From: Bdellovibrionota bacterium
Lineage (GTDB): Bacteria > Bdellovibrionota_C > UBA2361 > JBIKWN01
Direction: 5' to 3'
Length of the DNA stretch: 64,000 nucleotides
Assembly: GCA_044356295.1 (NCBI GenBank)
Contig: JBIKWN010000005.1
Span: forward strand, 1-64,000
The notes under the pieces were generated by a model. It did no database searches. It was not told the origin of the DNA and worked only from the letters and a program-made list of their open reading frames with translations. The first letter of the stretch is position 1; each line of letters starts with the position of its first letter. Both the position numbers and the translations under genes were made by a program. This document shows positions 14,392 through 61,015 of the stretch, piece after piece.

Positions 14392-14406
14392 TGGCATAAC
14401 CCTTGC
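14392..14406 (+). promoter_or_regulatory. sigma54 (RpoN) -24/-12 promoter upstream of motA
   Basis: TGGCATAACCCTTGC (GG-N10-GC). Confidence 0.7.
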
Positions 14407-14420
14407 CCTACTCTTTCACT

Positions 14421-15227
14421 ATGAACACAAAAGTACAAAATTTTGACACCAAATTTGCGTCCGAAGAGCGACCTTATGACAGAGGTATTATTATAGGTGC
14501 TTCTATATCGTTTCTACTTATCGTGGTTGGACTTATTGCTGGTGGCAAGTTGTCAGCAGCCTTTAATCCGATGAGTTGGTTGATTGTTCTTGGTGGAACA
14601 TTTGGAGCAACACTGGTTCAGTATTCTTGGTATGACATTAAGCATGGTTGGGATTGTTTCCGTAAAGCTTTAATGACACTTGATTTACATCCTCGGGAAA
14701 GAATTTCGTACATTGTGAATTTATCACATGCAGTAAGACAAAACGGTTTACTAATCTTGGAAGATGAAGCGCATCGCACGTATGATCCATTTTTAAAGTT
14801 AGCTCTTGAACTGACAGTAGATGGACAACCAGCAGCTGATATTAAAAGAATTCTAGAAACCGAAATGAGAGCTTCGCAGGATAAAGCACATCGCGGTTCA
14901 AATATCTTTCAAACGATGGGGACGTATGCTCCGGCACTTGGATTGATAGGTACCATTATTGGAATGATGCAAATGCTTGGTGATATGCAAAATGCTTCAA
15001 ATATAGGTCCAGCTATGGCAATTGCCCTTACGACAACGCTGTACGGAGCAATCCTTTCAAATCTACTTTTTCTTCCTATTGCAGGTAAATTAAGAAACCA
15101 TATTGATGAAGAGCTATTAGTGAAAGCTATAACTATTGAAGGGATTCTTGCTGTTGGAAGACAGGAAAATGCCTCAATGGTAGAGCAGAAATTACAAGGC
15201 TTTTTACCCCTTATTCCTAGTGTTTAG
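14421..15227 (+). CDS. motA: Flagellar stator A subunit (MotA/PomA)
   Basis: IVLGGTFGA, LELTVDG, APALGLIGT, IGPAMAIALTTTLYG, PIAGKL. Confidence 0.92.
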   Translation: MNTKVQNFDTKFASEERPYDRGIIIGASISFLLIVVGLIAGGKLSAAFNPMSWLIVLGGTFGATLVQYSWYDIKHGWDCFRKALMTLDLHPRERISYIVNLSHAVRQNGLLILEDEAHRTYDPFLKLALELTVDGQPAADIKRILETEMRASQDKAHRGSNIFQTMGTYAPALGLIGTIIGMMQMLGDMQNASNIGPAMAIALTTTLYGAILSNLLFLPIAGKLRNHIDEELLVKAITIEGILAVGRQENASMVEQKLQGFLPLIPSV

Positions 15228-15245
15228 AGTTTTTTTCTTGAGTGA

Positions 15246-15734
15246 GTGATGCTACCGAATAAATCTCAATGTGAGCATATAGAGGAAGGATTTTCTCAAA
15301 GTTTTGCTTTGCAATTTATCTCACTGGTATTATTTATCTTAATATTTGTTGTTACTAGTAACTTCTCAAACAGTAATTCAGATATTCAGACTAAAGAAGA
15401 AGTACTAGAAGTTTCGAATGTACTGAATATAAAAAATTCTGTCCAAGATAAAGTCATCTTTGAGCAGCAATTAACACCAGAATACTTTTCAGCAAACTAT
15501 AAATCCTTACAACTTTCAGAGTGGCAGCCCTTATTTGAAATGATCAAGGATCATGATCTCTCTGTAGTCGTTACGCTTGCAGCAGATTCATTATCAGAAA
15601 AATTATCAAAAGCTGAATCTACCTATTCACTATTACTTGAAGCTGGAGTTCCTACTGAAGCACTACGTGTAGAGACTAGTGTGAAAACAGAAAATGATTT
15701 TATAAAACTTATTGAAGGAGACGTCTCATGGTAA
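15246..15734 (+). CDS. Short single-TM protein, degenerate MotB-like without the TM aspartate
   Basis: TM FALQFISLVLFILIFVV; C-terminal AESTYSLLLEAGVPTEALRV resembles the end of an OmpA-like domain; lies between motA and motB. Confidence 0.5.
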   Translation: MMLPNKSQCEHIEEGFSQSFALQFISLVLFILIFVVTSNFSNSNSDIQTKEEVLEVSNVLNIKNSVQDKVIFEQQLTPEYFSANYKSLQLSEWQPLFEMIKDHDLSVVVTLAADSLSEKLSKAESTYSLLLEAGVPTEALRVETSVKTENDFIKLIEGDVSW

Positions 15735-16237
15735 CTGAGTCTTCTCGGGTCAATCACCAACAAACTCCTCATGATGTACATGGGACATGGCTTATTAGTT
15801 TTGCTGACCTTCTGGTTCTCTTGCTCTGTGCTTTTATTATGTATTTTTCTCAGAAGAACGATTCAGAGATTCTCAAACAGAATAATTCTGGCATCAAAGT
15901 TGCCTCTTTGGTGAATGAAGTACCAACTGAGCAACTTGAGTTTTTTGCAAACGATATTTTAGAAAGTAGTGATTTACTGACCCAAGAAAGTATCAAAGTT
16001 GTAAAAAAAGCAGTGGATCTAGGGTTTTACGGAGGGGAAGTGGTAACACTTTCAATTTGTAACGGGGCGAATGCGAATAAAATAGCATCTAATTTTTTGA
16101 CACTCTTTCGGGAAGCTATGGTTCCTGAAGAGCGTTTAAAGGTACGGTTTTTTGGCACTGAGTGCAGCACTCTTGGATTTAGAGACAAACCAAAAGGAGC
16201 ACTCGTTGCAAAGATAGAGATTTTGAAAAATGGCTGA
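15728..16237 (+). CDS. motB: Short flagellar stator B subunit (MotB-like)
   Basis: WLISFADLLVLLLCAFIMYF TM with the essential Asp; short degenerate OmpA-like tail VPEERLKVRFFG. Confidence 0.75.
   Translation: MVTESSRVNHQQTPHDVHGTWLISFADLLVLLLCAFIMYFSQKNDSEILKQNNSGIKVASLVNEVPTEQLEFFANDILESSDLLTQESIKVVKKAVDLGFYGGEVVTLSICNGANANKIASNFLTLFREAMVPEERLKVRFFGTECSTLGFRDKPKGALVAKIEILKNG
15889..15903 (+). promoter_or_regulatory. Possible internal sigma54 promoter for fliL-R
   Basis: TGGCATCAAAGTTGC (GG-N10-GC) inside motB, about 330 nt upstream of fliL. Confidence 0.45.
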
Positions 16238-16769
16238 CGACGATAAAGAAGAAAAGAAAGAGGAAGCACCGCCTGCTAAAAAGAGTAAGTTGATGCTCTT
16301 TATCGGTGTAGGTGTTGTCGTCTTACTTATTGGCGGAGGAGCAGCTTTTTTTCTAATGAAAGGAAAGAAAGAAGCGAAGGAAGAAATTGGCGCTGATGCA
16401 GCACAATCTGAATCTGGTCTTACGAGTGAAAGTGCAGTTGATGCTGAAGAACCACTTGAAGAAGGTGAAGAAGCATTAGGTGCAATTTTTCCGTTAGAGA
16501 CCTTCGTTGTAAATCTTACTGGTGGAAAATATGTTCGTGTACAAATGCAGCTTGAATTTCAAACACGAGATGTACCAAAAAGTTTCCTAGGAAAAATTGT
16601 AGCAATTCGTGATCTAATCATTACAGCCCTTAATAAAAAAACAGCAGATACAATTCTTGCAGAAAATGGAAAAGAATCAGTCAAAAGTTCAGTGAAAGAC
16701 ATCGTAAATGAAGTCTTGAAGAAAGAAGCAGTTAAAAAAGTTTATTTTACACAGTTTATCGTCCAGTGA
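16230..16769 (+). CDS. fliL: Flagellar basal-body protein FliL
   Basis: N-terminal TM, FVVNL, IRDLII, VYFTQFIVQ. Confidence 0.92.
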   Translation: MADDDKEEKKEEAPPAKKSKLMLFIGVGVVVLLIGGGAAFFLMKGKKEAKEEIGADAAQSESGLTSESAVDAEEPLEEGEEALGAIFPLETFVVNLTGGKYVRVQMQLEFQTRDVPKSFLGKIVAIRDLIITALNKKTADTILAENGKESVKSSVKDIVNEVLKKEAVKKVYFTQFIVQ

Positions 16770-16776
16770 TGAGAGT

Positions 16777-17805
16777 ATGAACCAGGTATTAACACAAGAA
16801 GAGATCAACTCACTCCTTCGAGGACTTTCAGATGGAGATGTAGAAACCGATTCAGTAGAAGCGGTACAAGCTGGCCCTCAAGCGAAGAAATTTGATCTTG
16901 CAAACCAAGAACGAATTATTCGTGGTCGAATGCCGACGATGGAACTTATCCATGATAGGTTCGCACGTCAGTTTCGTTCAGTACTTTCTAAGTTTTTAGG
17001 CCGAACCTGCTTTGCAAACGTAGGTGGGATTGAAATGGTGAAGTTCGGGCTTTTCATGAAAAAGCTTCCTCTTCCATCTTCACTTCATATTTTTAGAATG
17101 CCGCCACTTTCTGGATACGCATTAATGGTTGTTTCAGCACCATTAGTATTCGGAATTATTGATAGCTTATTTGGTGGTAGTGGACAGGGACGAGTTAAAA
17201 TCGAAGGTCGGGAATATACTCCGATTGAAACACGCCTTATTGGTAAGATCGTGATGCAAGCACTTGATGTTCTTAAAGATGCATGGGCACCGATTCATCC
17301 AGTTGATTTTGTTTATGTACGTTCTGAATTTAACCCATTAGCAATCGCAATAGTTCCGCCAACGGATGTGGTGATTATTGTTACCATTGAAGTTGAGCTT
17401 GAGCAGGAAAGTACAACGCTCACATTGTGCACACCAATTTCAACTATTGATCCTCTCAGACACAAGTTAGCTGCTGGGTTCCAAAGTACGCGCCTCGAAA
17501 TAGATACAACGACGGCTAAACGTATGGAAGCAAGTGTACGTCAAACTATTACAAATATGAGTGTTCAATTGGCAACAGGTACCATCAAAACAAAACAGTT
17601 TTTGCAATTATGTGTAGGAGATGTTGTTACTATGGAAACAAATCCTTCAGATGAGGCAATGCTTATGGTGGAAGGTGAACCGAAGTTTTACGGATACGTA
17701 GGAAGTTTTCGTGGGAATAGGGCGCTTAGAATTACGCGACCAATTCCAGGAAGAGATTTAATTAACTATCGAAACAGACAGGAGCTAGTGAAAAATGGCG
17801 GGTGA
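16777..17805 (+). CDS. fliM: Flagellar motor switch FliM
   Basis: VLTQEEINSLL CheY-binding motif, IIRGRMPT, FGGSG, REYTPIE. Confidence 0.95.
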   Translation: MNQVLTQEEINSLLRGLSDGDVETDSVEAVQAGPQAKKFDLANQERIIRGRMPTMELIHDRFARQFRSVLSKFLGRTCFANVGGIEMVKFGLFMKKLPLPSSLHIFRMPPLSGYALMVVSAPLVFGIIDSLFGGSGQGRVKIEGREYTPIETRLIGKIVMQALDVLKDAWAPIHPVDFVYVRSEFNPLAIAIVPPTDVVIIVTIEVELEQESTTLTLCTPISTIDPLRHKLAAGFQSTRLEIDTTTAKRMEASVRQTITNMSVQLATGTIKTKQFLQLCVGDVVTMETNPSDEAMLMVEGEPKFYGYVGSFRGNRALRITRPIPGRDLINYRNRQELVKNGG

Positions 17806-18151
17806 TGGCAGCGAAGAATTAGAACAGGTAGCGCAGGCGGCTTCAAATGTTGCTGCTGCAGCAACAGGTGCAGTAGCAGGCAAAAGAAAACCTCAAACAT
17901 TGGATTTTATCCTCGATGTCACCTTACAGGTGACAGTAGAAGTAGGGCGGTCTCGAATGACCATTCAGGATCTTCTACAACTAGGACAAGGTTCGGTTGT
18001 TGAGCTGGAAAAGCTGGCTGGAGAGCCGTTAGATATATATATCAACGGTAAACAGGTAGCACGGGGTGAAGCGGTAATCGTCAACGAGAAGTTCGGTGTG
18101 CGATTAACGGATATCATCTCTCCAGAAGATCGAATAGAGTCATTGGGGTGA
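17795..18151 (+). CDS. fliN: Flagellar motor switch FliN
   Basis: ILDVTLQVTVEVGR, GSVVELEKLAGEP, GEAVIVNEKFGVR. Confidence 0.95.
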   Translation: MAGDGSEELEQVAQAASNVAAAATGAVAGKRKPQTLDFILDVTLQVTVEVGRSRMTIQDLLQLGQGSVVELEKLAGEPLDIYINGKQVARGEAVIVNEKFGVRLTDIISPEDRIESLG

Positions 18152-18666
18152 GATACTATCTTTTAATAAAGACCCTATTCCTCTGTTTTCTTATTAGCTT
18201 TCCTTTGATGAGCCTTGCTCAAGATGCACCGCCAGCGTCTGATGCGAAGCATGAGTTATCAAAGCTCGAGCGTGCAAATGTTTTACGCGAAATCCAACTT
18301 GGGAAAGGAGCACTTGCGGAGCCATTACCAAGCCCTGATCAAGATTTAACTTCAACAGCATTAAGAATGTTCCAGAGTCTGGGAATTATTCTTGGATGTT
18401 TTTTGATTGGTGCATGGGCATATAAGAAATATATTTTGAAAGAGGTAGGAGGTGTGTCTGCTTCGCGAATAAAAGTCTTAGAAAGAATGTCGGTATCAAC
18501 AAGGGGTACGGTTATTCTTTCTGAGATAGATGGTAAAAAAATATTAATTGGAATTACTCCGCAGTCTATTAATTTTCTCGATCTAACATCAGGATCTTCT
18601 CAACAGAGCACTTTTAATTCCTCTTCACCCTCATTTATTCAAACTTTGACTGAGGAGATTAAATGA
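18148..18666 (+). CDS. fliO: Flagellar biosynthesis protein FliO/FliZ
   Basis: Position between fliN and fliP; TM followed by IKVLERMSV...ILIGIT. Confidence 0.8.
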   Translation: MRYYLLIKTLFLCFLISFPLMSLAQDAPPASDAKHELSKLERANVLREIQLGKGALAEPLPSPDQDLTSTALRMFQSLGIILGCFLIGAWAYKKYILKEVGGVSASRIKVLERMSVSTRGTVILSEIDGKKILIGITPQSINFLDLTSGSSQQSTFNSSSPSFIQTLTEEIK

Positions 18667-19445
18667 AAAAATTATTTCAAATCCAACCTCTCTGTATTTT
18701 TTTAATTGTTTGTTTTATTACGCTTCATGCAGCATCAGCTCTTGCGCAAGATCCAAGTGCTGCTCTTCCTAATCTATCAATTGCAATAGGTGATACTAAG
18801 TTGGGCGCTGATGGAACTGTTTCATCTACGATCAAGATTATGCTCCTTCTTACGATGTTGTCGTTTGCGCCAGCAATGGTGATGACGATGACTTCTTTTA
18901 CGAGGATATCAGTAGTACTAGGAATGGTTAGAACAACTCTCGGGACTCAGTCGATGCCACCAAATATGGTTATTACTGGACTCTCATTGTTCCTGACGTT
19001 TGCGATAATGCAGCCTGTAATGCAAGACATGTATAAAGATGGAATCGCTCCGTTCATGGAAGGAACTATGTCACAAGAGGAAGCGCTTCCAAAAACATTT
19101 GCACCATTAAAGAAGTTTCTGGTTCAACATGCCCGGGAAAAGGATCTTGCCTTATTTTTAGAGATTTCAAAATCAGAGATCCCCGAAAAGCCAGAAGATG
19201 TGCCTATCTATGTTGCAGCACCGGCTTTTGTTTTGAGTGAACTCAACCTTGCTTTTCAAATTAGTTTTATGATTGCACTTCCATTTCTAATTTTAGATAT
19301 GGTTGTTTCAAGTGTATTAACTTCCATGAGTATGATTACACTTCCGCCAGTAGTCATTTCACTACCGTTGAAACTGATGCTTTTTGTAATAGTCGATGGA
19401 TGGCACTTAATCATTACTTCGTTAGTGCAAACGTACCGGGTATAA
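18663..19445 (+). CDS. fliP: Flagellar export gate FliP
   Basis: MTSFTRI, PPN, PAFVLSEL, LPPVVISLPLKLMLFVIVDGW. Confidence 0.95.
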   Translation: MKKLFQIQPLCIFLIVCFITLHAASALAQDPSAALPNLSIAIGDTKLGADGTVSSTIKIMLLLTMLSFAPAMVMTMTSFTRISVVLGMVRTTLGTQSMPPNMVITGLSLFLTFAIMQPVMQDMYKDGIAPFMEGTMSQEEALPKTFAPLKKFLVQHAREKDLALFLEISKSEIPEKPEDVPIYVAAPAFVLSELNLAFQISFMIALPFLILDMVVSSVLTSMSMITLPPVVISLPLKLMLFVIVDGWHLIITSLVQTYRV

Positions 19446-19463
19446 AATCAAAGGAGGATTATT

Positions 19464-19733
19464 ATGCAACTTGGTGACTATATGAGACTTGCGCAGGTAG
19501 GGATAGAAACAGCCATTTTGGTTTCTGCTCCAGTGCTTGTCATTGGACTGGTTGCTGGATTACTCGTAAGTATTTTTCAAGCAGCGACTCAGATTAATGA
19601 TGCATCTCTTGCTTTTATTCCAAAGATCGGAGCAGCAGTTGTAGGTCTCTTGGCTTTTGGCCCTTTCATGATCAATCGAATCTCTTCATTTACAATCTGG
19701 GTGTACACTCAAATCCCACTCCTTGCTAATTAA
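19464..19733 (+). CDS. fliQ: Flagellar export gate FliQ
   Basis: GLLVSIFQAATQIND..LAFIPK. Confidence 0.95.
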   Translation: MQLGDYMRLAQVGIETAILVSAPVLVIGLVAGLLVSIFQAATQINDASLAFIPKIGAAVVGLLAFGPFMINRISSFTIWVYTQIPLLAN

Positions 19734-19751
19734 AAAAAGTCGGATTTTTTC

Positions 19752-20561
19752 ATGGGTGACGAACTAGGGTTCATGCAGAATGCTACTAAGATTCTTTCGA
19801 ATCTAAATCTTGCATTCACCTTTATACTTTTGTTAACTCGTTTTTCTACAATGTTTCTTTTAATACCAGGTATTGGTGCAGCACAACGAGGTATCGCTGC
19901 AAAGTATTCTGCAATACTTATGTTCTCACTTGTATCAATGTATTCGTCGGCAACCGTTCCGCTGCCGACTAACCTTGCTCTGATGGCAGGAATGATACTT
20001 TCAGAGATGGCATTAGGTGCTTGTATCGGTCTTATCCCTCTTTTAATGATTGCAGCTTTACAAAATGCTGGGCAGATTGCCAGTACTTCAATGGGTCTTC
20101 AAGCAGGTGCTGTTATGGATCCATCTACAGGGATATCGGTATCAGAGCTTTCCAAAATTTTCGGTGATCTATTTATGATTGCTTTTCTTTATGTGAATGC
20201 ACACCACGTATTGATTATGGCTGCCTCTGGATTAAACGGCAGGCTCATTCCTGGGAGCTTTCTTATTGGTGAAAGCTCACTTGAGTTTGTAATCCAACGA
20301 AGTGCTGATATTTTTATGTATGGTCTCCTCTTTGCTTCTCCTGTTGTTGTTGCGCTCTTGCTTACAAACTTTGTGATGGGATTAGTCTCAAAAGCAGTTC
20401 CTACAGTGAATATATTTATTGTTTCATTCCCTTTAACAATTGGTATAGGGCTTATTCTGACTCTTCTGATGATCCCAGAGCTTATGAAAGCTAATGAAAA
20501 AGTGATAACATCCACGGACAGCAGTGTTTCGGTAATACTGCAGGATGCAACACTAAAATAA
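19752..20561 (+). CDS. fliR: Flagellar export gate FliR
   Basis: AGQIAS.SMGL, MDPSTG, KAVPTVNIFIVSFP. Confidence 0.92.
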   Translation: MGDELGFMQNATKILSNLNLAFTFILLLTRFSTMFLLIPGIGAAQRGIAAKYSAILMFSLVSMYSSATVPLPTNLALMAGMILSEMALGACIGLIPLLMIAALQNAGQIASTSMGLQAGAVMDPSTGISVSELSKIFGDLFMIAFLYVNAHHVLIMAASGLNGRLIPGSFLIGESSLEFVIQRSADIFMYGLLFASPVVVALLLTNFVMGLVSKAVPTVNIFIVSFPLTIGIGLILTLLMIPELMKANEKVITSTDSSVSVILQDATLK

Positions 20562-21466
20562 TGACGACTACAAAAAACGCTATTCAATCTGGGGTACGTA
20601 GTACTCTTCTTGGTGCATTCATCAATATTCTTCTTGCAGTAATCAAAGGATTTGCTGGTGTGTTAGGGAATTCATTCGCACTTGTTGCTGATGCAATAGA
20701 GTCGCTGTGTGATATTTTTAGCTCATTAGTTGTGCTTGTAGGTTTGAAAATGGCGGGCAGGCCAGCAGATACTAATCATCCATATGGTCACGGTAAATAT
20801 GAACCACTTGCAGGAGTTATTGTTGCGATGGTTTTATTTGGAGCAGCAATTTTTATTGCTATCGAAAGTGTCAGAGGAATCATTACACCACATCATGCAC
20901 CGGCAGCATTTACGCTTTGGGTTCTCTTGGTCGTTATAGTTATAAAGGAATCACTGTTTCGTTTTGTGAAAGGTATCGGCGATCAGATACATAGTTCTGC
21001 CGTGAAAGCAGATGCCTGGCATCACCGTAGTGATGCAATTACATCAATGGCTGCTTTTGTTGGAATTTCAATTGCTTTGCTTTGCGGACCAGGATACGAG
21101 AGTGCCGATGATTTTGCTGCCCTTATTGCAGCATGTATTATTTTAATAAATGCAATGATACTCCTAAAACCAGCACTGTTTGAATTGCTTGATACCGCTC
21201 CTGATCCACAGCTTCATATGAGAATTAGAGATATTGCTGTTAACGTTCCTGGAGTATACGGAACACATAAGTGTCATGTGAGGAAATTAGGTTTTGATTA
21301 TTTTGTTGACCTTGATGTTTTGTGTGATCCAGATGCGACTATTCGTCAAGGACATACCATCGCCCATGATGTTGGAGAAGCCATTCATGCTGCACTTCCA
21401 GAGATCACGAAGGTACTTGTCCATGTTGAACCCAAAGATGATTTTGGAAGACGTGACCGTGGCTAA
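20561..21466 (+). CDS. Cation diffusion facilitator (FieF/MamM-like) transporter
   Basis: ALVADAIES..D, HPYGHGKYE, ADAWHHRSD, VLVHVEP. Confidence 0.92.
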   Translation: MTTTKNAIQSGVRSTLLGAFINILLAVIKGFAGVLGNSFALVADAIESLCDIFSSLVVLVGLKMAGRPADTNHPYGHGKYEPLAGVIVAMVLFGAAIFIAIESVRGIITPHHAPAAFTLWVLLVVIVIKESLFRFVKGIGDQIHSSAVKADAWHHRSDAITSMAAFVGISIALLCGPGYESADDFAALIAACIILINAMILLKPALFELLDTAPDPQLHMRIRDIAVNVPGVYGTHKCHVRKLGFDYFVDLDVLCDPDATIRQGHTIAHDVGEAIHAALPEITKVLVHVEPKDDFGRRDRG

Positions 21467-21621
21467 TTTTATATAAATCGATCCTTTATAACTAATTGAA
21501 TTTACTATATAAAACTAAGTTTAGTTTTACCAACTAAGTTTAGATTTCTTTTTTCTCTGAACCAAAGCTTCTTTAGGATAAGATAGGTGAGCGTAATCTT
21601 TATCCTCTAAGGAAAAGTAAA

Positions 21622-21969
21622 ATGTCAGAAGAGATTGTTGGTCGATTATTTGGTTCATTTAAAGTTCTTGAAGACGCCATTATCAATGCTCGTGAGAATC
21701 TTTCTTCTAGACCTCACGTTAAAATCGAAGTACTTGATAGACTTGATTCTTATACAACGCTACTCAGTAAACAGCGTACAGTTGCTTCTGAACTCACAAC
21801 CCTCATAGAGCAAGGTCTTTGGCAGGAAGTTTCACAAAAAATTGCTCTTATTAATGGACTTCTCGAAATGATTCGCACTGATGCACGTGATGTTTTAGCT
21901 TCCTTAAATCGTTCATCTTCTGAAGAAATAGAATCTGATAATGAAGAAGATTCTATTATCATCTGTTAA
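21622..21969 (+). CDS. Hypothetical helical protein
   Basis: 115-aa ORF with AAGGA SD; acidic tail. Confidence 0.65.
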   Translation: MSEEIVGRLFGSFKVLEDAIINARENLSSRPHVKIEVLDRLDSYTTLLSKQRTVASELTTLIEQGLWQEVSQKIALINGLLEMIRTDARDVLASLNRSSSEEIESDNEEDSIIIC

Positions 21970-22012
21970 TTTCTAAATAATAGTTTGATACCACACATCT
22001 CTAGCTAATAAC

Positions 22013-22028
22013 CGGCACGCCTATTGCA
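22013..22028 (+). promoter_or_regulatory. sigma54 promoter upstream of flhB
   Basis: CGGCACGCCTATTGCA, close to the TGGCACG-N4-TTGCW consensus. Confidence 0.8.
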
Positions 22029-22063
22029 TTTTATAGTTCTGACACCCTTTTTGCGTCAAAAAA

Positions 22064-23191
22064 ATGTCAGAAGCATCCGCCCCAGAAGAACGTACCGAGC
22101 TGCCTACCGACCGTAGGATGGGTCAGTTGCGTGGAGAAGGAGCTGTCCATTGCTCGAATGAGGTTGTTCAAGTTGTCAGCATGTTGACAGCGTTTTATGG
22201 ACTGACCTTTGTATGGCCTATTTTTTTCCAAAGATTCAAAGATGTATTTGCTGGTGTTTTTAAATCTATTCGAGATCCAGAACCAATGGTTTTTGAGAAT
22301 CTCTACCATGGGTTAATTAATGTTATTCTTGCGTTTGCACCGCCACTCATTTTATTTGTTGCCGCTATTGCTACGACGACAACGTTAGCAACTTTTCTTC
22401 AAACAAAATGGAATATAAAGAAAAAGTGGATCAAATTTGACCTTGGATTTCTTAATCCTATATCAGGAATTATGAAGATTTTTTCGATACAAGGCTTTAT
22501 TACAACTGGTAAGGCAATCCTGAAACTACTTTTCATACTTCCTATTGCATATCTCATGCTTCGAGCAGAAGCAGATAAAATGATTCAGTTAGTTCACACA
22601 AATTTAGAAGAAATATTCCATTTTGCGAATACTGAAATGTGGGCACTCTTTTGGAAAATTATGTATATCCTCATTGGAATTGCAGTATTTGATTATTTTT
22701 ATGGGAAGTTTCAGTGGTTTAAAACTAATAAAATGACAAAAGATGAAGTTAAAGATGAAAGAAAATCCATTGAAGGAGATGAAGCAACAAAAAGAAAAAT
22801 TATTAATAAAGCGATGAGTCGCGCTGCATTTCGTATTCGTAATGCAGTAGCAAAGGCAAGTGTCATTATTACTAACCCAACCCATTATTCTATCGCGCTG
22901 CAATATGACAGGAATAATATGAAAGCACCTGTTGTTGTTGCTAAAGGAAAGGGATTTATGGCTTTAAAGATTAGAGAGATTGCAAAAGAATACGGGATTC
23001 CACTTGTCGAAAGAAAACCTGTAGCGAGGGCTTTGTATGCATCAGTAGAAGTAGGAAGAGAAATACCGTTTGAACTTTATAAGGCAGTCGCTGAGGTTCT
23101 TGCGTATGTCTATAAGCTCAAAAATCCTTATGCGAATCGAAATCAAGAACCGGTGCAACAAAACAACAGCCAACAAAGTATGAGACCTTAA
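22064..23191 (+). CDS. flhB: Flagellar export substrate-switch FlhB
   Basis: ERTELPT, MTKDEVKDE..EGD, NPTHY autocleavage motif, AVAEVLAYVY. Confidence 0.95.
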   Translation: MSEASAPEERTELPTDRRMGQLRGEGAVHCSNEVVQVVSMLTAFYGLTFVWPIFFQRFKDVFAGVFKSIRDPEPMVFENLYHGLINVILAFAPPLILFVAAIATTTTLATFLQTKWNIKKKWIKFDLGFLNPISGIMKIFSIQGFITTGKAILKLLFILPIAYLMLRAEADKMIQLVHTNLEEIFHFANTEMWALFWKIMYILIGIAVFDYFYGKFQWFKTNKMTKDEVKDERKSIEGDEATKRKIINKAMSRAAFRIRNAVAKASVIITNPTHYSIALQYDRNNMKAPVVVAKGKGFMALKIREIAKEYGIPLVERKPVARALYASVEVGREIPFELYKAVAEVLAYVYKLKNPYANRNQEPVQQNNSQQSMRP

Positions 23192-23226
23192 TTATACTAA
23201 AATGGTAACAGGGATGTAACAATTGT

Positions 23227-25317
23227 ATGGCAACGAATTTGAAAGGTAACAAGTTACAAAAGTTTATAATTCATACTTCAATGCCTGTGGCGTTGATCTT
23301 TATACTTGGTATTCTAGTTTTTCCTATACCGACGAGTGCCCTTGATGTTTTCTTAGCATTAAATATTACTATTTCACTTATTGTTCTGTTTGTTTCACTC
23401 TATATTGACAGACCTTTAAACTTTTCATCCTTTCCGGCTATCTTACTTATTACAACACTATTTCGACTTGCAATGAACGTTGCAACTGCTCGTTTGATTC
23501 TTCTTCATGGTCATAATGGAACAGATGCAGCCGGACATGTTATTCAAGCTTTTGGTGAATTTGTTGTCGGCGGGAACTTTGTCGTAGGTTCGGTCATATT
23601 TATCTTGATTAGTATTGTAAACTTAAAAGTAATCACAAAAGGTTCGGGACGTATTGCGGAAGTTGCTGCCAGGTTTACTCTTGATGCAATGCCAGGAAAA
23701 CAGATGGCGATTGATTCAGATTTAAGTTCGGGAATGATCAATGATAAAGAAGCTAAAATTCGAAGAAAAGAGCTTTCGATGGAAGCTGAATTTTATGGAG
23801 CTATGGACGGAGCTGCAAAGTTCGTAGGTGGAGATGCTATTGCAGGTATTTTTATCCTCTTTATAAATATTATCGGAGGATTTCTTGTTGGTTGCTTCAT
23901 GAAGGGCATGGACTGGCAAGAAGCGATTCGAGTGTACATTATCTTAACGATTGGAGATGGACTCGTAAGCCAAATCCCATCAATTATTATTTCAGTTGCA
24001 TCCGGTTTAATTGTTGCACGTGCAGCTTCAGGTGAAGATTTAGGGTCTGATGTTATTGGACAGTTAGGTGCTTCGAGCAAACCTCTCTTTCTTGCGTCAG
24101 CAGTTTGCGGAGCTTTTGCAATTTTACCTGGACTTCCTTTTTTACCATTTTTTGTTTTATCAGGTCTTTGCGTTACTGCTGGTTATTTTAGAGATAAAAT
24201 AACTTCACAACATAAAGTCCTAGAAGATAAAAAAGCACACGAACATAAAGAAGAAGCAAACAAACCTAAACCTGGTAGTACTGAAGAAGTAACAGGGCTT
24301 TTGGGTATTGATACTCTTGAATTAGAAGTTGGTTTTGAATTGGTAAGCCTTGTTGAATCAGGCGATCTTGTTGAGCGTATTCGTTCAATTCGTAGGCAAT
24401 TTGCTCTTGATTATGGATTTATTGTCCCACCGATTCATATCAGGGATAACGTTCGAATTAAATCAAATGAATACAGATTTATGTTGAAAGGTGCGGTCAT
24501 TGGTTCGTCTGAACTAAAACCTCATCATATGCTTGCAATGGATCCAGGCAATGTTTCATCACCAATTGATGGAACTCCGACCAAAGAACCATCATTTGGA
24601 CTTGATGCTCTTTGGATCAATGATACCGATAAAGAACGAGCACAGTTTTCTGGTTATACCGTAGTAGATCTCCCAACTGTTATTACTACTCACTTAACAG
24701 AATTAGTCAGGGCAAACATGGCAGAACTTCTTGGCAGACAAGATGTTCAACATTTATTAGACACTGTTTCAAAAGAAGCTCCAAAAGTTGTTGAAGAGCT
24801 TATTCCTTCACTACTAACAGTAGGACAAGTTCAGCAAGTGCTTCGATTGCTTCTTAAAGAACAAATTAGTATTCGAGATCTTAAAACTGTTTTGGAAACG
24901 CTCGCTGATTGGGCTCCAACACTGAAGCATCCTGAAAAGCTTTCTGAATTTGTAAGACGTCGTCTTGCACGATCGATTACCAGCAAATATTTGTCACCAG
25001 AAGGAACACTTCCATTGGCGAGTCTAAATCCTGGCATAGAAAGAACACTAGGGGAGGCAGTACAGCAGACTGATGAAGGATCGTATCTTGCATTAGAACC
25101 TGGATATGCTCAGAGACTGATCAATCGTTTGACACAGATCTCTGAGAAATTTATGGAGCGTGGTTTAACGCCAGTGGTACTCGCTCCAGGTCATGTAAGA
25201 GCTGCTTTAGCCCACTTTATTGATCGATTTACCCCTGGCATCGCGGTGATAAGTCACCAAGAGATCGCACCGAATACTCGGGTTCAGTCCTTAGGAATCG
25301 TAGCGATCGAAGAGTAA
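23227..25317 (+). CDS. flhA: Flagellar export protein FlhA
   Basis: RIAEVAARFTLDAMPGKQMAID, FYGAMDGA, TIGDGLVSQIP. Confidence 0.97.
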   Translation: MATNLKGNKLQKFIIHTSMPVALIFILGILVFPIPTSALDVFLALNITISLIVLFVSLYIDRPLNFSSFPAILLITTLFRLAMNVATARLILLHGHNGTDAAGHVIQAFGEFVVGGNFVVGSVIFILISIVNLKVITKGSGRIAEVAARFTLDAMPGKQMAIDSDLSSGMINDKEAKIRRKELSMEAEFYGAMDGAAKFVGGDAIAGIFILFINIIGGFLVGCFMKGMDWQEAIRVYIILTIGDGLVSQIPSIIISVASGLIVARAASGEDLGSDVIGQLGASSKPLFLASAVCGAFAILPGLPFLPFFVLSGLCVTAGYFRDKITSQHKVLEDKKAHEHKEEANKPKPGSTEEVTGLLGIDTLELEVGFELVSLVESGDLVERIRSIRRQFALDYGFIVPPIHIRDNVRIKSNEYRFMLKGAVIGSSELKPHHMLAMDPGNVSSPIDGTPTKEPSFGLDALWINDTDKERAQFSGYTVVDLPTVITTHLTELVRANMAELLGRQDVQHLLDTVSKEAPKVVEELIPSLLTVGQVQQVLRLLLKEQISIRDLKTVLETLADWAPTLKHPEKLSEFVRRRLARSITSKYLSPEGTLPLASLNPGIERTLGEAVQQTDEGSYLALEPGYAQRLINRLTQISEKFMERGLTPVVLAPGHVRAALAHFIDRFTPGIAVISHQEIAPNTRVQSLGIVAIEE

Positions 25318-25359
25318 CGATAGACCGCGAGATTTATAGGTTTACAAGGGATTATACAG

Positions 25360-26340
25360 ATGCGAACAAGGATGTTTCGCGGGACAGAAGTCTCGTCAGT
25401 GATGACTCAGATCAAAGAAGAAGTTGGAGATGATGCGTTTATTGTTTCTATGACAGAAGCATCTGGTCGAGTAGAAATTGAAGTAGGTGTTGATGATGGT
25501 CTCCCAATGGTACGTCTGGAGCATCCAATTACTGACGCAATTTTAGAACCTACAGCCGACGTTACTCATAAAAATGATCTCATGACGCTCCTTCTTGAGC
25601 ATGGTGTTTCTAAAGCCAACGCTCAATTAATCATAAAAGGCGCAAGCCCGGTAGCCAAAACAGAGATGTCTGCTGATAGAAGAATTGGGCATGGACTTGA
25701 TACCATTCTTGAATGTAATTCATTACTTCCACAGCGTTCAAATGTGATTGCAATTTGTGGAGCAACAGGTGTTGGAAAAACTACTACGATTGCAAAAATA
25801 GCAGCTCGTTTAAAGCAAAGCTTTGAAATGAAGATTGGTTTAATCGCGGCAGATACATACAGAGTAGGTGCTGGATTCCATTTGCAGACGTATGCATCGC
25901 TTATGAATATGCCGTTTCGTCAGATTCAATCATCCGGAATCAAAGGCGCAAAAGAATTAAAAGACGCAGTCGATCAGTTTTCACAATATGATTTAGTATT
26001 GATTGATACATCAGGATGTGGACCTCGCGAAAAGGGCAGGATTGAAGACTTAGAAAAATCACTTTCTCTGATTCCTCAAGCAGAAAAAATGCTTGTGCTT
26101 CCTGCACCGTCGAATGATTTCGATCTTCATGCTGCCGCTCGATCTTTTGCAAAAATTGATTATAGCAGAGTTATTTTATCGAAAGTTGATGAAAGCGGTT
26201 TTATCGGTCCAGTTATAAATACGTTGATAGGATTAAAAAAGCCTTTGGCTTTTATTGCATCAGGGCAACGTGTTCCTGAAGATATTGAACCAGCGTCAAA
26301 TCGACGACTTGGATGGATGCTCACGAGAGCAATGCAATAG
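25360..26340 (+). CDS. flhF: SRP-type GTPase FlhF
   Basis: GATGVGKTTTIAK, DTYRVGA, DTSG, SKVDE, GQRVPEDI. Confidence 0.9.
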   Translation: MRTRMFRGTEVSSVMTQIKEEVGDDAFIVSMTEASGRVEIEVGVDDGLPMVRLEHPITDAILEPTADVTHKNDLMTLLLEHGVSKANAQLIIKGASPVAKTEMSADRRIGHGLDTILECNSLLPQRSNVIAICGATGVGKTTTIAKIAARLKQSFEMKIGLIAADTYRVGAGFHLQTYASLMNMPFRQIQSSGIKGAKELKDAVDQFSQYDLVLIDTSGCGPREKGRIEDLEKSLSLIPQAEKMLVLPAPSNDFDLHAAARSFAKIDYSRVILSKVDESGFIGPVINTLIGLKKPLAFIASGQRVPEDIEPASNRRLGWMLTRAMQ

Positions 26341-26424
26341 CAGTTAGGGGTAAGGAAAAAGTGTACAAAAATGTACATAAAATCCTTGAAAAATCAGTAA
26401 TTTGAATAATCAAAGAGAAAGCCA

Positions 26425-27387
26425 ATGAATTTAAAACAGTCACTAAAAAAAGGTGGAACGGGAAGTCGACCGCTCGAATCATATAGAGAGACGAGTATTA
26501 GACCGCAGCCGGCAGTGCGAGCCGATCAAGCTGAAGGTCTTCGTCGTTTAAACGTTCAAAAAAAGACTCCAAGTGGCATGAAAGGGATTACAAGAGTTAT
26601 CAGTTTCACAAGTGGCAAAGGTGGAGTCGGAAAGACTCAAACCATTGTGAATACAGCTATTGCGCTTGCTCGAATGGGTAAATCTGTTTTATTGCTTGAT
26701 GCTGATCTTGGATTAGCAAATGTAAATGTACTTCTTGGTATAAATCCTAAATACACACTTCAAGATGTTTTCAGCGGTGCTAAATCGCTTCGAGATATTT
26801 TAATAACTGGTCCAGAAGGAATTTCAATCATTCCTGCTGCAAGTGGTGTTGAATCAATTTGTGAACTCAATACTCACCAAAAACTCATGTTGCTTCAAGG
26901 TATTGAAGAAGTAGCACATGCTTATGATTACCTGTTAATAGATACACGAGCAGGAATCAGCAGTGATGTTATGTATTTTAATACTGCATCATCTGAAATT
27001 ATATGCGTCATCAATAATGAGCCAACATCGCTCACTGATGCATACGCAACAATAAAAGTTCTTTCAACAAATTACGGCGAAAAACGGGTTCTCGTTGTCG
27101 CTAATAATGTCAGTGATGAGCGTGAAGGTATAAAAGCCTTTACTCGATTATCTCAGGCAGTTGAAAAGTTTCTACACATCGAGGTGACGTACCTTGGGTG
27201 TATTCCACGGGATGGGGCAGTATCACAGGCAATACAAAATCAGCAGCCGGTACTAGAGCTATTTCCTACATCACCTGCGTCACGTGCAATTGGTAAAATT
27301 GCATCACGCATTGATGAGGAGTTCTTACAGTATCGAGTTAAGGGGGGCATGCAGTTCTTCTTTGAGCAGATTTTAGCGGTGGGGTAA
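26425..27387 (+). CDS. flhG: MinD-like ATPase FlhG/FleN
   Basis: DQAEGLR, SGKGGVGKT, DADLGLAN, EPTSLTDAYA. Confidence 0.93.
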   Translation: MNLKQSLKKGGTGSRPLESYRETSIRPQPAVRADQAEGLRRLNVQKKTPSGMKGITRVISFTSGKGGVGKTQTIVNTAIALARMGKSVLLLDADLGLANVNVLLGINPKYTLQDVFSGAKSLRDILITGPEGISIIPAASGVESICELNTHQKLMLLQGIEEVAHAYDYLLIDTRAGISSDVMYFNTASSEIICVINNEPTSLTDAYATIKVLSTNYGEKRVLVVANNVSDEREGIKAFTRLSQAVEKFLHIEVTYLGCIPRDGAVSQAIQNQQPVLELFPTSPASRAIGKIASRIDEEFLQYRVKGGMQFFFEQILAVG

Positions 27388-27393
27388 CGGACA

Positions 27394-27630
27394 GTGGCTG
27401 AGACCAAGCGGGTCATCAAACGAGTAAGCTTTGTATTTATGCAAAAGCTTGCCGCGGCAGTTTCGCTCCTTGCTTTAGTAGTAACTACTTTGGCAGGGAT
27501 TATGGGAGGCGCAAGGATCATCACCATTACCTACCGAGCAGCACTGGTGATCGTTGTCGTCGGAACACTGACTAGGATCATTATTAAGATTCTAGAAAGT
27601 TATGAGGAGATGAATAGTGGTAAAGGCTAA
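27394..27630 (+). CDS. Small two-TM membrane protein
   Basis: Two hydrophobic segments; fills the flhG-fliA gap and overlaps the fliA start. Confidence 0.55.
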   Translation: MAETKRVIKRVSFVFMQKLAAAVSLLALVVTTLAGIMGGARIITITYRAALVIVVVGTLTRIIIKILESYEEMNSGKG

Positions 27631-28372
27631 AAAATCGGCAGCAGAAGCATACAAAGTAAACACCCCAGATCCACAAGACCGTGAGGAATTGATTCGTCAA
27701 TACTTGCCACTTGTGAAGCGAGTTGTACATCGACTTTCTGGAAGACTACCTAAGGATATCGACATTCGAGAGATGTTGAACTCTGGTATTATTGGGTTGG
27801 TGGATGCACTGGAAAAATACGATCCAAAACATGAAACAAATTTTGCAACGTATGCACAGTTTCGAATTCGTGGTGCAATCTTAGATAGTTTCCGATCACA
27901 GGATTGGTTACCAAGATCGCTTCGATTCAAGTCTCATAAATTAGAACAAGCATATCAACGTATAGAACAAAAACTTGGGCGTCCCGCTACTGATGAAGAA
28001 GTTTCAATAGAGTTAGGAATTCCGATTGAAGAATTACAAAGTATGCTCAGCGAAGTTGGAAGCATTGTAATGCTTTCCTTTGAAGAGCTAGGATTTGGTC
28101 ACGGTGAAGAACGATTCCAAGCTGACGATGTTGTCGCAAGTAAAGGACAAGATCCATTAGGACAAATTCTTGGAGCTGAAAAAATTAGTTTAATTGCTCG
28201 TGCACTTGATAGATTACCTGAAAAAGAGCGACTGGTTATAAGCCTTTATTTCTATGAAGAACTAAACTTGAAAGAGATTGGTGAAATTCTTGGAGTAACT
28301 GAGTCACGAGCATCACAAGTTCGTTCACGTGGATTAATTCGTCTTAAAAACTATCTTAAACACGCAATGTAA
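27617..28372 (+). CDS. fliA: RNA polymerase sigma28 factor FliA/WhiG
   Basis: YLPLVK, YAQFRIRGAILD, DWLPRS, YEELNLKEIGEILGVTESR. Confidence 0.95.
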   Translation: MVKAKKSAAEAYKVNTPDPQDREELIRQYLPLVKRVVHRLSGRLPKDIDIREMLNSGIIGLVDALEKYDPKHETNFATYAQFRIRGAILDSFRSQDWLPRSLRFKSHKLEQAYQRIEQKLGRPATDEEVSIELGIPIEELQSMLSEVGSIVMLSFEELGFGHGEERFQADDVVASKGQDPLGQILGAEKISLIARALDRLPEKERLVISLYFYEELNLKEIGEILGVTESRASQVRSRGLIRLKNYLKHAM

Positions 28373-52232: not shown

Positions 52233-52236
52233 AATA

Positions 52237-58628: not shown

Positions 58629-58736
58629 TAACTATTATTTTTTTTTGTAACGCGAAGGACACGAAGTACGCGAAGGAATTAATTTAATCCTTCGCGTACT
58701 TCGCGACCTTCGCGTTACAAAAAATATCTTCAATTA
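58629..58736. repeat. Long palindromic repeat, copy 2 (left 108-bp direct repeat of the flagellin cassette)
   Basis: TAACTATTATTTTTTTTTGTAACGCGAAGGACACGAAGTACGCGAAGG...CCTTCGCGTTACAAAAAATATCTTCAATTA. Confidence 0.9.
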
Positions 58737-58752
58737 CTTTCTACCGAGCAAT

Positions 58753-58871: not shown

Positions 58872-58882
58872 AAGATTCTGAT

Positions 58883-58909
58883 TAACTTTTTGGGCTAAGT
58901 AGTCGATCT
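58883..58909 (+). promoter_or_regulatory. Putative sigma28 promoter of flagellin
   Basis: TAACTTTT-N11-GTCGATCT, about 95 nt upstream of the flagellin ATG. Confidence 0.65.
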
Positions 58910-58980: not shown

Positions 58981-58996
58981 TGCAAAAGGAATTGCA
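58981..58996 (+). promoter_or_regulatory. Possible CsrA-binding hairpin over the flagellin Shine-Dalgarno
   Basis: TGCAA-AAGGAA-TTGCA: GGA in a hexaloop. Confidence 0.45.
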
Positions 58997-59003
58997 AACA
59001 TAA

Positions 59004-60860
59004 ATGCCAATCACGATCGCTAGCAACATAGCGTCGCTTGGTGCGCAACGACAACTTGGAAAAGTTTCCGAGTCGTTAGGTAGTACCTACGAGAGGCTCT
59101 CATCAGGAATGAGAATTAATAAAGCATCAGATGATGCTGCAGGGCTCGCAATTGCTTTAAGTCTGAATTCAGATACAAGAGTATTTACTCAAGCGGTAAG
59201 AAACTTAAATGATGGTATATCGTATCTATCAATCGCTTCTGGAGCACTTGATGCCCTTTCAACTATAGTCATTAGGCAGAAAGAATTAGCAGAGCAATCT
59301 GCAAATGGAACTGTTGGCCTCACGCAACGAAAAAGTATTCAACAAGAGTCAGATGCATTAACAAGAGAATATGCTCGTATTACTGCAACTGCTACGTTTA
59401 ATAATCGAAAAATATACGAAGATAATTCCAATAACTTACTATCGTTACAAACAGCCTATAGTGCGATTACATATAATCTTGGGCAGTCTCTTGCTGATTA
59501 TCGTGGTGATGGGACTTTCTCGAGTGGGACAACTGTGGATAGTGCTACATTTTTGGGGCAAGTAGTAATTGCGGACCTCAATAATGATGGGAAACAAGAT
59601 ATTATACAGGTCAGAGGTACTGGTGGAAATTTAAGGTATCAACTCGGAAATGGTGATGGAACTTTCCAAAGTGTCATTCAGCTTAGCACTGGAAATAGTC
59701 CAATTTCAGTATTAGTTGATGATTATAATAAAGATGGTTTCAAAGATTTTGCGATAGTAAATTCACAAGGTAATCTGCGTGTTGCTTTACAAAATAGCAA
59801 TGGAACTTTTGGAACTTTTGTTACTTATCAAGGTCCACTTGGAGCAAACACCATGCAGTTAACATCTGGTGATTTTGATGGTGATGGTATTACTGATCTT
59901 TTTTATCAACACGGAAGTTTTACAAGTTGGGTCTTAAGAGGAAATAGTGATGGTAGCTTTCAAGCCCCAGTGACTGCAGCTAGCACCCTTTTTAATAGTA
60001 CCGTAAAAGTTGCTGATTTTAATAACGATGGAAAATCTGATTTAGTTTCGATTACATCTGGAACACTAAGAACATTTACTTCGAATGGTGATGGCACATT
60101 CGCAGTAGGCGCAACAATCTTCTCTGGAATTACCGGTTCAGTTACAGCAGATGTAGGTGATTTTAACCGAGATGGAATTCAAGATATTGTTTATTCAGAT
60201 ACCACATCTGGGAGGGTATATCTTGCCATTGGTAATGCAAATGGAACTTTTCAAGCTTCTATATCATTCACATCTTCAGGTGCAAACCCAGGCTCCATAA
60301 CGACTGGGGATTATAATGGAGATGGATTAGCAGACATAAGTTATCTCACAACTGGTTCAACATCGTTAAGTATTCGTTTAGGTAATGGTGACGGTAGTTT
60401 TCGGGCAGAGACATCATCAGCAATAAGTACTAATGGATCATTTGCTTTTGGGGATGTAAATAATGATGGCTCTGTTGATCTTGTTTCAGTGAGATCCGAT
60501 TCCAATTCTAGTGCTCTGTATCTGCAAGGCACACGAACAGAATTTCAAGCAGACTATTTATATCTTTTAGACCAAAAGAGTGCCCGAAATGCCATCGATC
60601 AACTTGAAACAATTTTTAATAAAATTTCTCAAGAACGTTCAATAGTCGGTGCTTCTCTTTCTAGAATTTCAGTCGGTATACAGACGCTGTCGGATGCAGC
60701 GCTACAGTATAAAGCTGCTGAATCAAGGATAAGAGATATTGATGTTGCAGAAGAATCATCAGAACTTACGAAACAATCAATTCGCCAACAAGTTGCTGCT
60801 TCGATTCTTGGACAAGCTAATCAGCAGCCATCTTTGGCGCTTAGCCTCTTACGATCTTAA
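59004..60860 (+). CDS. fliC: Flagellin with seven FG-GAP/VCBS repeats in the variable region
   Basis: N-term ERLSSGMRINKASDDAAGLAIA; C-term AAESRIRDIDVAEES...QANQQP..ALSLL; central DxNxDGxxD repeats x7. Confidence 0.93.
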   Translation: MPITIASNIASLGAQRQLGKVSESLGSTYERLSSGMRINKASDDAAGLAIALSLNSDTRVFTQAVRNLNDGISYLSIASGALDALSTIVIRQKELAEQSANGTVGLTQRKSIQQESDALTREYARITATATFNNRKIYEDNSNNLLSLQTAYSAITYNLGQSLADYRGDGTFSSGTTVDSATFLGQVVIADLNNDGKQDIIQVRGTGGNLRYQLGNGDGTFQSVIQLSTGNSPISVLVDDYNKDGFKDFAIVNSQGNLRVALQNSNGTFGTFVTYQGPLGANTMQLTSGDFDGDGITDLFYQHGSFTSWVLRGNSDGSFQAPVTAASTLFNSTVKVADFNNDGKSDLVSITSGTLRTFTSNGDGTFAVGATIFSGITGSVTADVGDFNRDGIQDIVYSDTTSGRVYLAIGNANGTFQASISFTSSGANPGSITTGDYNGDGLADISYLTTGSTSLSIRLGNGDGSFRAETSSAISTNGSFAFGDVNNDGSVDLVSVRSDSNSSALYLQGTRTEFQADYLYLLDQKSARNAIDQLETIFNKISQERSIVGASLSRISVGIQTLSDAALQYKAAESRIRDIDVAEESSELTKQSIRQQVAASILGQANQQPSLALSLLRS

Positions 60861-60879: not shown

Positions 60880-60987
60880 TAACTTTTATTTTTTTTTGTA
60901 ACGCGAAGGACACGAAGTACGCGAAGGAATTAATTTAATCCTTCGCGTACTTCGCGACCTTCACGTTACAAAAAATATCTTCAATTA
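60880..60987. repeat. Long palindromic repeat, copy 3 (right 108-bp direct repeat of the flagellin cassette); probable bidirectional terminator
   Basis: Two mismatches versus 58629-58736; lies between convergent genes. Confidence 0.9.
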
Positions 60988-61015
60988 TTTCTAGCATCAA
61001 TCAGCCAAATATGTT

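Follow-up and report, generated by a model that had tools for sequence, protein, structure and literature searches.

Flagellin outer domains have been surveyed by Fields and colleagues (Nat Commun 2024, PMC11532411), who used AlphaFold models of 16,948 flagellins to define 682 clusters of outer domains. For one of these, cluster #55, "WD40-repeats" were named, and cellular homologs were taken to suggest co-option. At least 16 of the 40 members of this cluster combine Flagellin_N (PF00669), Flagellin_C (PF00700), and FG-GAP_3 (PF13517) within 545–670 residues, and they come from metagenome-assembled genomes (MAGs) labelled Deltaproteobacteria, Pseudomonadota, Alphaproteobacteria, SAR324, and Bradymonadales. 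The members listed without FG-GAP belong to Paenibacillus, Metabacillus, Desulfovibrio, and Chlamydiales; a singleton cluster, #636 (Fuerstiella), has Flagellin_N together with FG-GAP. Here we describe a gene of this kind at positions 59004..60860 (+ strand) of a window of 64,000 nucleotides, the start of contig JBIKWN010000005.1 from a Bdellovibrionota bacterium (assembly GCA_044356295.1). An original prediction, made from the letters alone, had read it as a flagellin displaying a seven-repeat FG-GAP propeller like that of integrin alpha. The window flagellin joins a catalogued, functionally unstudied flagellin class. The catalogue, as far as its available text goes, assigns the fold to WD40 and does not treat function, structure, or genomics, whereas we find FG-GAP; also absent from that account are repertoires of 10–16 copies, invariant calcium loops with hypervariable surfaces, and a sigma-28-like promoter. 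Full-text literature searches, with subscription journals outside their coverage, found no functional study of propeller flagellins, only the catalogue entry, and the one preprint with both flagellin and FG-GAP/VCBS concerned unrelated Midichloria proteins.

Other flagellins with large or functional outer domains include that of Geovibrio thiophilus, with D2–D5 (9au6), those of enterohaemorrhagic and enteropathogenic E. coli (EHEC, EPEC) and Achromobacter, with dimerising domains (7sn4, 7sn7, 7sqd), and the peptidase-like "flagella_HEXXH" proteins, which form outer-domain cluster #15 in the catalogue (PMC11532411). All have conserved D0/D1 regions and, at the same position, a co-opted outer domain, as here. 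However, their outer domains have immunoglobulin-like, beta-barrel, or peptidase folds rather than a propeller, and in the texts covered none of them is reported with 10 or more paralogs per genome. Outside the flagellins, the integrin alpha head shares the seven FG-GAP blades and the DxDxDGxxD-type calcium hairpins. Integrins have the calcium loop in three or four blades, unlike the protein described here, which has a loop of this type in all seven. The alpha5, alphaV, alphaIIb, alpha6, and alpha4 heads superpose on the window domain at Z 26.6–27.4 with a root-mean-square deviation (rmsd) of about 3.1 Å over about 320 residues, but sequence identity is only 12–17%, and the window domain lacks a beta-subunit partner and sits inside a flagellin. 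Four lectins, PVL (Psathyrella velutina), AAL2, PLL (Photorhabdus), and BP39L (Burkholderia), are also seven-bladed and of similar size. This likeness is structural; the model of the PLL/BP39L lectin family (NF052349) scored 23.3 bits (E 2.6e-5) against a cut-off of 400.

The gene starts with ATG and encodes 618 amino acids plus a stop codon. Its N-terminal D0/D1 region (residues 1–140; 59004..59423, +) is covered by Flagellin_N at residues 5–141 (E 1.1e-30, 106.9 bits against a cut-off of 26.6, profile positions 1–137 of 139), and residues 1–139 align without gaps and colinearly with Vibrio cholerae FlaA (9n8g, E 6.5e-26), as they do with other solved filament flagellins. The C-terminal D1/D0 region (residues 522–618; 60567..60857, +) is matched by Flagellin_C at residues 532–616 (E 5.2e-16, 59.2 bits against 23, positions 2–86 of 86). 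Between them lies the outer domain (residues 165–513; 59496..60542, +), in which FG-GAP_3 matches seven stretches (E 5.7e-55, 184.2 bits against 26.9) and FG-GAP (PF01839) also exceeds its gathering score (E 1.2e-22, 79.8 bits). These Pfam scores for flagellin ends and FG-GAP repeats are far past chance, and they bear out the claim of intact flagellin termini around the insert. The seven repeats that had been read from the letters (ADLNNDGKQD, DDYNKDGFKD, GDFDGDGITD, ADFNNDGKSD, GDFNRDGIQD, GDYNGDGLAD, and GDVNNDGSVD) are likewise all in the translation, and a period of 144–150 nt can also be seen in the DNA of the gene (repeat families D1 and D3). In NCBIfam, the top matches are flagellins (E 3e-47 to 1e-42), with FlgL just at 3.9e-22. 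None of the curated flagellin models passed, the best reaching 161 bits against cut-offs of 365–627, because these are full-length models for specific flagellin types and here both ends alone match. The divergence ascribed to the segment matching the TLR5 epitope was overstated. VIRQKELAEQ is present, but when ivirqkelaeq is aligned to ilqrmrelsvq or ilqrmrdlalq of solved flagellins, R, E/D, L, and Q are all retained. The segment is thus only moderately divergent, and the remark has little bearing on a lake-water bacterium.

Structure prediction assigned the expected fold to the insert. We supplied AlphaFold2 with an alignment of 21 rows (the window protein, nine paralogs, and eleven database representatives), and the model (mean predicted local distance difference test, pLDDT, 81.7; predicted template modelling score, pTM, 0.74) has a helical-hairpin D0/D1 core, with helices at 6–33, 45–100, and 106–129 and then at 524–579, 583–605, and 607–617, around an all-beta middle at residues 165–513 (pLDDT mostly 80–91). 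In Foldseek, the core found its best matches in flagellar filaments solved by cryo-EM (9au6, 9n59, 7sn7, 9gnz), and the middle aligned with the lectin PVL (2bwr; E 3.4e-11, rmsd 4.0 Å over 341 columns, target TM 0.59), with further matches to AAL2 (4tqj), UmbA4, CRTAC1, ITFG2, and a Tc-toxin propeller. VIA-align, a structure aligner independent of Foldseek, placed residues 168–513 on whole seven-bladed propellers, the five top chains having Z 27.4–29.1 and rmsd 2.7–3.6 Å over 306–333 residues. Aldos-2-ulose dehydratase scored 29.1, the BP39L lectin (6gxr) 27.6, and both integrin alpha5 and the PLL lectin (5c9o) 27.4. Other integrin alpha heads followed at 26.6–26.9, and the five integrin heads together span residues 168–517. 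We therefore have good confidence in the model's reading of residues 168–513 as a closed, seven-bladed, integrin-alpha-like propeller, which is what the original prediction had expected of AlphaFold on a D0/D1 base. The WD40 label is not supported: WD40 propellers scored Z about 23–24, below the FG-GAP-type group (about 27), and no WD40 family was among the five Pfam families that matched the protein at E ≤0.01. A phmmer search of the propeller against all PDB sequences gave no match at E ≤0.001.

Calcium-type loops of the form DxNxDGxxD occur in all seven blades, starting at D191, D240, D290, D338, D386, D436, and D484. In a map of 49 long homologs from seven genomes, with loop values averaged across the seven blades, the loop positions D0, N2, D4, G5, and D8 have entropies of 0.02, 0.73, 0.08, 0.14, and 0.14 bits. 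The GNGDGTF turn is intermediate (1.2–1.8 bits), and the remaining propeller positions, strands included, are near 3 bits. By region, mean entropy is 1.25–1.51 bits for D0 and the N-terminal D1, 1.88 for the C-terminal D1, and 2.41 for the propeller. What is new here is that all seven predicted calcium loops are nearly invariant while the remaining propeller positions are hypervariable. No residue outside the calcium loops and GNGDGTF turns is kept across the 49 homologs; consequently, the family has no common binding pocket. From propeller topology, the calcium loops (A–B) and GNGDGTF turns (C–D) would lie on one face, and the variable B–C and D–A loops on the opposite face, the one used by integrins for ligands.

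The gene is far from alone, although the original prediction had implied that it was unique. The contig that starts with the window is 97 kb long and belongs to a 2.96-Mb genome (here G000; 128 contigs, 93.6% complete), in which Flagellin_N has 22 matches. Ten are long flagellin genes of 573–628 codons, each with FG-GAP_3, and nine are short, core-only ones of 268–295 codons, one of them cut by a contig end; the others are one divergent 689-residue relative, a fragment, and hook-associated proteins. Nine of the ten long copies are intact. The tenth, C120 (G000:C120:5611-7470), has one in-frame TAA, after which the frame runs on into the C-terminal domain, and it is either a pseudogene or an assembly error; lone in-frame TAA stops were also seen in copies of two relatives (G010:C14 and G051:C12). 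The 689-residue protein (G000:C38:25619-27688) is 26% identical to the window flagellin end to end and carries FG-GAP repeats, but its D0/D1 ends are degenerate, with a weak Flagellin_N and no Flagellin_C; two short flagellin genes adjoin it. We considered that it might be FlgL and rejected this, as it has no NCBIfam match and the FlgL-like gene sits by csrA and fliW on C98. The ten long loci have no common neighbours, except that two of the copies lie in tandem on C74, one pair of neighbours are ABC-type paralogs, and unannotated genes next to C120 and C12 match weakly (24% over 82 residues).

Propeller flagellins are widespread in relatives. The relatives are samples of their groups, and the counts hold for the genomes searched. 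In the same order, 22 of 40 sampled relatives, from 14 of 21 families, have full-length matches at E ≤1e-60, with as many as 16 copies in a single genome, some of them in tandem arrays. In a wider sample of same-order and same-class genomes, where 13 candidates per genome were scored and copy numbers are minimum values, matches at E ≤1e-70 came from 28 of 95 other genomes, among them 7 of 23 from other orders of the class and just 1 of 28 species of one large genus. Among named records, matches that include the propeller are found only in MAGs titled Bdellovibrionales, Bdellovibrionota, or "bacterium" (L026–L031, L036, L037), and in the remaining loci similarity is confined to the flagellin ends. 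Broader searches were swamped by generic multi-repeat FG-GAP proteins: of two protein database searches, with the insert or the whole protein as query, one had 6873 of 8000 scored candidates at E ≤0.001 and the other 140,725 proteins, with only 11 of the 150 representatives listed in the latter being full-length and flagellin-type (605–640 residues). At the DNA level, the gene recurs in lake-water and freshwater metagenome contigs from several studies (15 DNA runs). Pieces coding for the propeller have no differences in contigs of three other lake-water runs (X2–X4), which supports the intactness of the gene.

To compare paralogs, we measured propeller identity at non-motif positions, apart from the calcium loops and GNGDGTF turns. 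Across 36 paralog pairs in G000, core identity has a median of 0.54 (0.45–0.86) and non-motif propeller identity a median of 0.14 (0.10–0.19); two other genomes gave propeller medians of 0.15 and 0.12, and across the three genomes the values lie at 8–20%. The contrast is also seen in the tandem arrays of relative G011, where cores are 0.89–0.95 identical and non-motif propeller positions 0.14–0.17. Synonymous divergence (dS) in these tandem copies is 1.0–1.6 for the core and at least 2.2 or saturated for the propeller. Because core dS is below propeller dS, the pattern suggests that gene conversion has homogenised the cores, or else that propeller segments have been shuffled. In a tree of 280 core columns with 49 long flagellins and 8 short ones of G000 (C47 and C120 left out), the long flagellins split from the short ones, with a value of 93 in the Shimodaira–Hasegawa-like approximate likelihood ratio test (SH-aLRT), not starred. 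Fourteen of 15 G011 copies form one clade (95), as do all three G040 copies (97), and the expansions are largely lineage-specific.

Turnover of the repertoire was assessed for 16 copies in sister species of three genera. One copy has a counterpart with a conserved surface (identity ≥0.8), three have counterparts at 0.39–0.57, and twelve have none above 0.22. An impression gained from one pair, that orthologs generally keep their surfaces, was therefore rejected. That pair is the copy on C8 of our genome and L110 of relative G002, whose propeller surfaces are 0.89 identical, with omega (dN/dS) about 0.05. Gaps in the assemblies (completeness is 86% for G002) may account for missing orthologs.

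Upstream of the window gene, a sigma-28 (FliA)-like promoter, TTAAC-N15-GTCGAT (58882..58907, +), ends 97 nt before the start codon. The sigma-28 consensus is TAAA-N15-GCCGATAA. When a pattern of this type, T[TA]A[AG]-N14-16-[GC][CT]CGA[TA], was counted, it was found upstream of seven of the ten long flagellin genes and of the divergent C38 gene, against 2.7% of 20,000 random 360-nt windows and none of the nine short genes. A scan of the flagellin locus for standard sigma-70 promoters and terminators gave nothing above shuffled expectation. The presumed regulator is the product of fliA (27617..28372, +; TIGR02479 FliA_WhiG, 247.7 bits against 189.6), which lies directly after flhA-flhF-flhG. 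Short and long flagellins may be in different regulatory classes. One short gene, C38a (G000:C38, upstream of 30636, − strand), has a sigma-54-like TGGCA-N6-TTGCA element, found by eye.

The leader also contains a hairpin in the minimum-free-energy fold, UGCAA-AAGGAA-UUGCA with GGA in its loop (58981..58996, +), a candidate CsrA site, ribosome-binding site, or both. It is identical in the leaders of the tandem copies C74a and C74b, and its AAAGGAATTGCA part is also in the C8 leader; the leader region as a whole has a fold z-score of −0.75, which is not significant. The genome has csrA and fliW, and in Bacillus, hag carries a CsrA site in its leader. By this analogy the hairpin may be a CsrA site, which is only a hint.

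We consider it likely that the product of the window gene is a true subunit of the filament, with a predicted calcium-braced, surface-variable propeller coat as its outer domain. It would be a late-class flagellin, driven by sigma-28, whose D0/D1 ends leave the cell through the flagellar type III system and assemble as the core of the filament. The outer domain, at about residues 165–513, would be a propeller braced by seven DxNxDGxxD calcium loops, one to a blade. With the scaffold fixed and nearly all other positions differing between paralogs, the genome would encode a repertoire of filament coats with varied surfaces on one rigid scaffold. RTX proteins fold after export when they meet calcium, and the propeller might behave in the same way: low cytoplasmic calcium would hold it unfolded for export, and lake-water calcium would drive folding at the filament tip. 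The propellers would then form an outer layer. With a rise of about 4.7 Å per subunit and a core radius of about 60 Å, as in flagellar filaments, arithmetic with the 38-kDa insert puts the filament at roughly 19 nm or more in width. This estimate is within range, as the Geovibrio filament measures 24 nm (PMC11532411). The variable surfaces may give each paralog its own surface properties, be it in binding or in evasion of phages or grazers.

Several observations weigh against this reading or parts of it. The conserved surface of the C8/L110 pair means that some surfaces are strongly constrained and not freely variable. dS is saturated in most pairs, which makes dN/dS uninformative on diversifying selection; diversifying selection and old divergence with core homogenisation are thus inseparable, and we make no claim of positive selection. 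The sigma-28 pattern was drawn by eye from the same upstream regions in which it was later counted, and four of its seven hits (C128, C74a, C74b, and C8) are not independent because their upstream DNA is homologous. GTG or TTG is the start codon in five of the ten long genes, and a strong AAGGAGG ribosome-binding site is found before three short genes only (C15, C45, and C95) and before none of the long ones. Because of these starts and sites, the long forms are possibly minor, and the sequences hint that the short flagellins are the bulk subunits, the long ones being minor or conditional. The flagellum of Bdellovibrio is membrane-sheathed, and if that of this lineage is similar, the sheath would be difficult to square with propellers exposed as a coat. 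Finally, besides flhA, the genome has two further FHIPEP genes (G000:C100:30776-32833 and G000:C18:53174-54889, the latter in two pieces). Both match SctV slightly better than FlhA, under both cut-offs, which suggests non-flagellar type III-like systems, and with two extra SctV-like export gates another export route for the long flagellins is possible.

What the coat would be for is a matter on which two explanations fit the data about equally, one of binding and one of evasion without binding. The first, which had been proposed with the original prediction and which we hold only tentatively, is an adhesin or lectin filament: carbohydrate- or protein-binding propellers, thousands per filament, each paralog with its own ligand for the capture of prey, particles, or surfaces. 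Bdellovibrionota is a phylum with predatory members, and the named relatives belong to it. The four lectins among the nearest solved folds (2bwr, 4tqj, 5c9o, and 6gxr) and the weak match to the BP39L family point in this direction, but integrin heads, aldos-2-ulose dehydratase, and scaffolding propellers score as high as lectins, so the fold alone says nothing on function. The BP39L match is far under its cut-off, and the phmmer search of the PDB was empty. That paralog surfaces are nearly all different, yet 89% conserved in one ortholog pair, would be expected of distinct, maintained specificities. However, no binding pocket is kept across the 49 homologs, and the conserved surface was seen in just 1 of 16 same-genus comparisons.

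The second explanation, to which we give a similarly guarded place, is a variable protective coat. The propeller would be a rigid spacer that binds nothing specific and whose surface changes as a means of evading flagellotropic phages, grazers, or antibodies or of tuning the hydrodynamics of the filament. A fixed scaffold with 8–20% non-motif identity among paralogs in three genomes is what such a coat would look like, and the lineage-specific expansions in G011 and G040, the tandem arrays with near-identical cores, and the fast turnover, with 12 of 16 same-genus copies lacking a counterpart above 0.22, are in keeping with it. Nevertheless, the C8/L110 surface is strongly conserved, incomplete assemblies may exaggerate the turnover by hiding orthologs, and no signal of phase variation or inversion was seen at the flagellin locus.

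It is unlikely that the long flagellins are not bulk filament subunits at all, being instead soluble exports of the flagellar type III system, proteins of a special site (hook-proximal, at the tip, or sparse), or unexpressed cassettes that donate propeller sequence by recombination: their weak translation signals, their scattered loci without shared neighbours, the suggested gene conversion of G011 cores, the in-frame TAA of C120, and the 689-residue relative with degenerate ends would suit this, but the D0/D1 ends are complete and better kept than the insert (1.25–1.5 against 2.41 bits), as expected if polymerisation is selected, seven of the ten genes have their own sigma-28-like promoter, and nine of the ten copies are intact.

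The predicted polymerisation into the filament has indirect support in the sigma-28-like promoter and in the presence of fliD, fliS, and fliW in the genome. A core flagellar cluster (motA, motB, fliL, fliM, fliN, fliO, fliP, fliR, flhB, flhA, flhF, and flhG, by Pfam) lies at 14403..27387 (+), with FlhA at 861 bits against a cut-off of 772 (TIGR01398). FliD and FliS are each encoded once in the genome, and csrA and fliW stand side by side on C98, next to the FlgL-like gene. The flagellin gene is 30 kb from the cluster, and the genes around it are unrelated: one of the adenylosuccinate-synthetase family, one for an AAA/DUF4143 ATPase, and a 673-residue open reading frame (ORF) without annotation. 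This ORF (61016-63037, −) is convergent with the flagellin gene and has no Pfam family; its N-terminus has a faint similarity to extracytoplasmic function (ECF) sigma factors (E 3e-4, far under the cut-off). Near the flagellar cluster, positions 10265-11119 (+) encode a 285-residue, extracellular-type protein with TSP3_bac calcium-binding repeats (E 5e-23), and a cation-efflux gene of the CDF family (20561-21463, +) sits between fliR and flhB in the export operon. A gene with a BrnA-type antitoxin domain (E 1.4e-10) is found at 55031-55435 (+).

The flagellin gene is also flanked by repeats. A 111-nt repeat, to which no strand is assigned, stands upstream (58629..58739, with an 84-nt palindrome at 58641-58724) and, in a 97% identical copy, downstream (60880..60990, palindrome 60892-60975), 20 nt past the stop codon. 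A third window copy of the palindromic element is at 52147-52234. The near-perfect 84-nt palindrome has T and A runs on its sides, gives 166 BLAST segments genome-wide, often at contig ends, and has high depth in metagenome contigs (four runs). Because the 111-nt element is genome-wide, it is not specific to the flagellin gene, and a role of these direct repeats as the boundary of a cassette or mobile element was rejected. They are probably terminators, the downstream copy possibly bidirectional, or dispersed elements resembling repetitive extragenic palindromes (REP), and a palindrome of this type, REP-like or like a miniature inverted-repeat transposable element (MITE), probably fragments the assembly. 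A second short repeat, GGGGACGCTCA, has 32 genome copies, four of them around the gene (58575, 58781, 58861 on the − strand, and 60862). Two GGGGACGCTCA copies, at 58781-58800 and 58852-58871, make up an inverted repeat of 20 nt without mismatches, a short way before the promoter-like motif.

A bolder conception, which we think improbable, would make the flagellum a programmable recognition organ. The 10–16 propeller-flagellins would be interchangeable, each with a different binding surface, shown thousands of times along a filament, on a calcium-gated scaffold that folds only after export, and gene conversion would keep the variants co-polymerisable. If this were true, a cell could choose which specificities, be it for prey, particles, or surfaces, its filament carries. 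Even short of that, no part of the flagellum is less well understood than the outer domains, and a rigid, calcium-braced propeller of about 350 residues would be one of the larger and most regular examples. Its export and folding pose a concrete question, because a velcro-closed propeller must cross the narrow filament channel unfolded and fold at the tip. The organisms are uncultured, and all of this remains prediction. With 10–16 copies per small genome, a constant scaffold under surfaces that hardly resemble one another, and tandem arrays whose cores are nearly identical, these bacteria offer a natural system for asking what outer domains do and how multi-flagellin filaments are made up, and the scaffold may be of interest to protein engineers as a polyvalent display platform. 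For the family itself, the size of the repertoire and the combination of an invariant scaffold with hypervariable surfaces are new findings.

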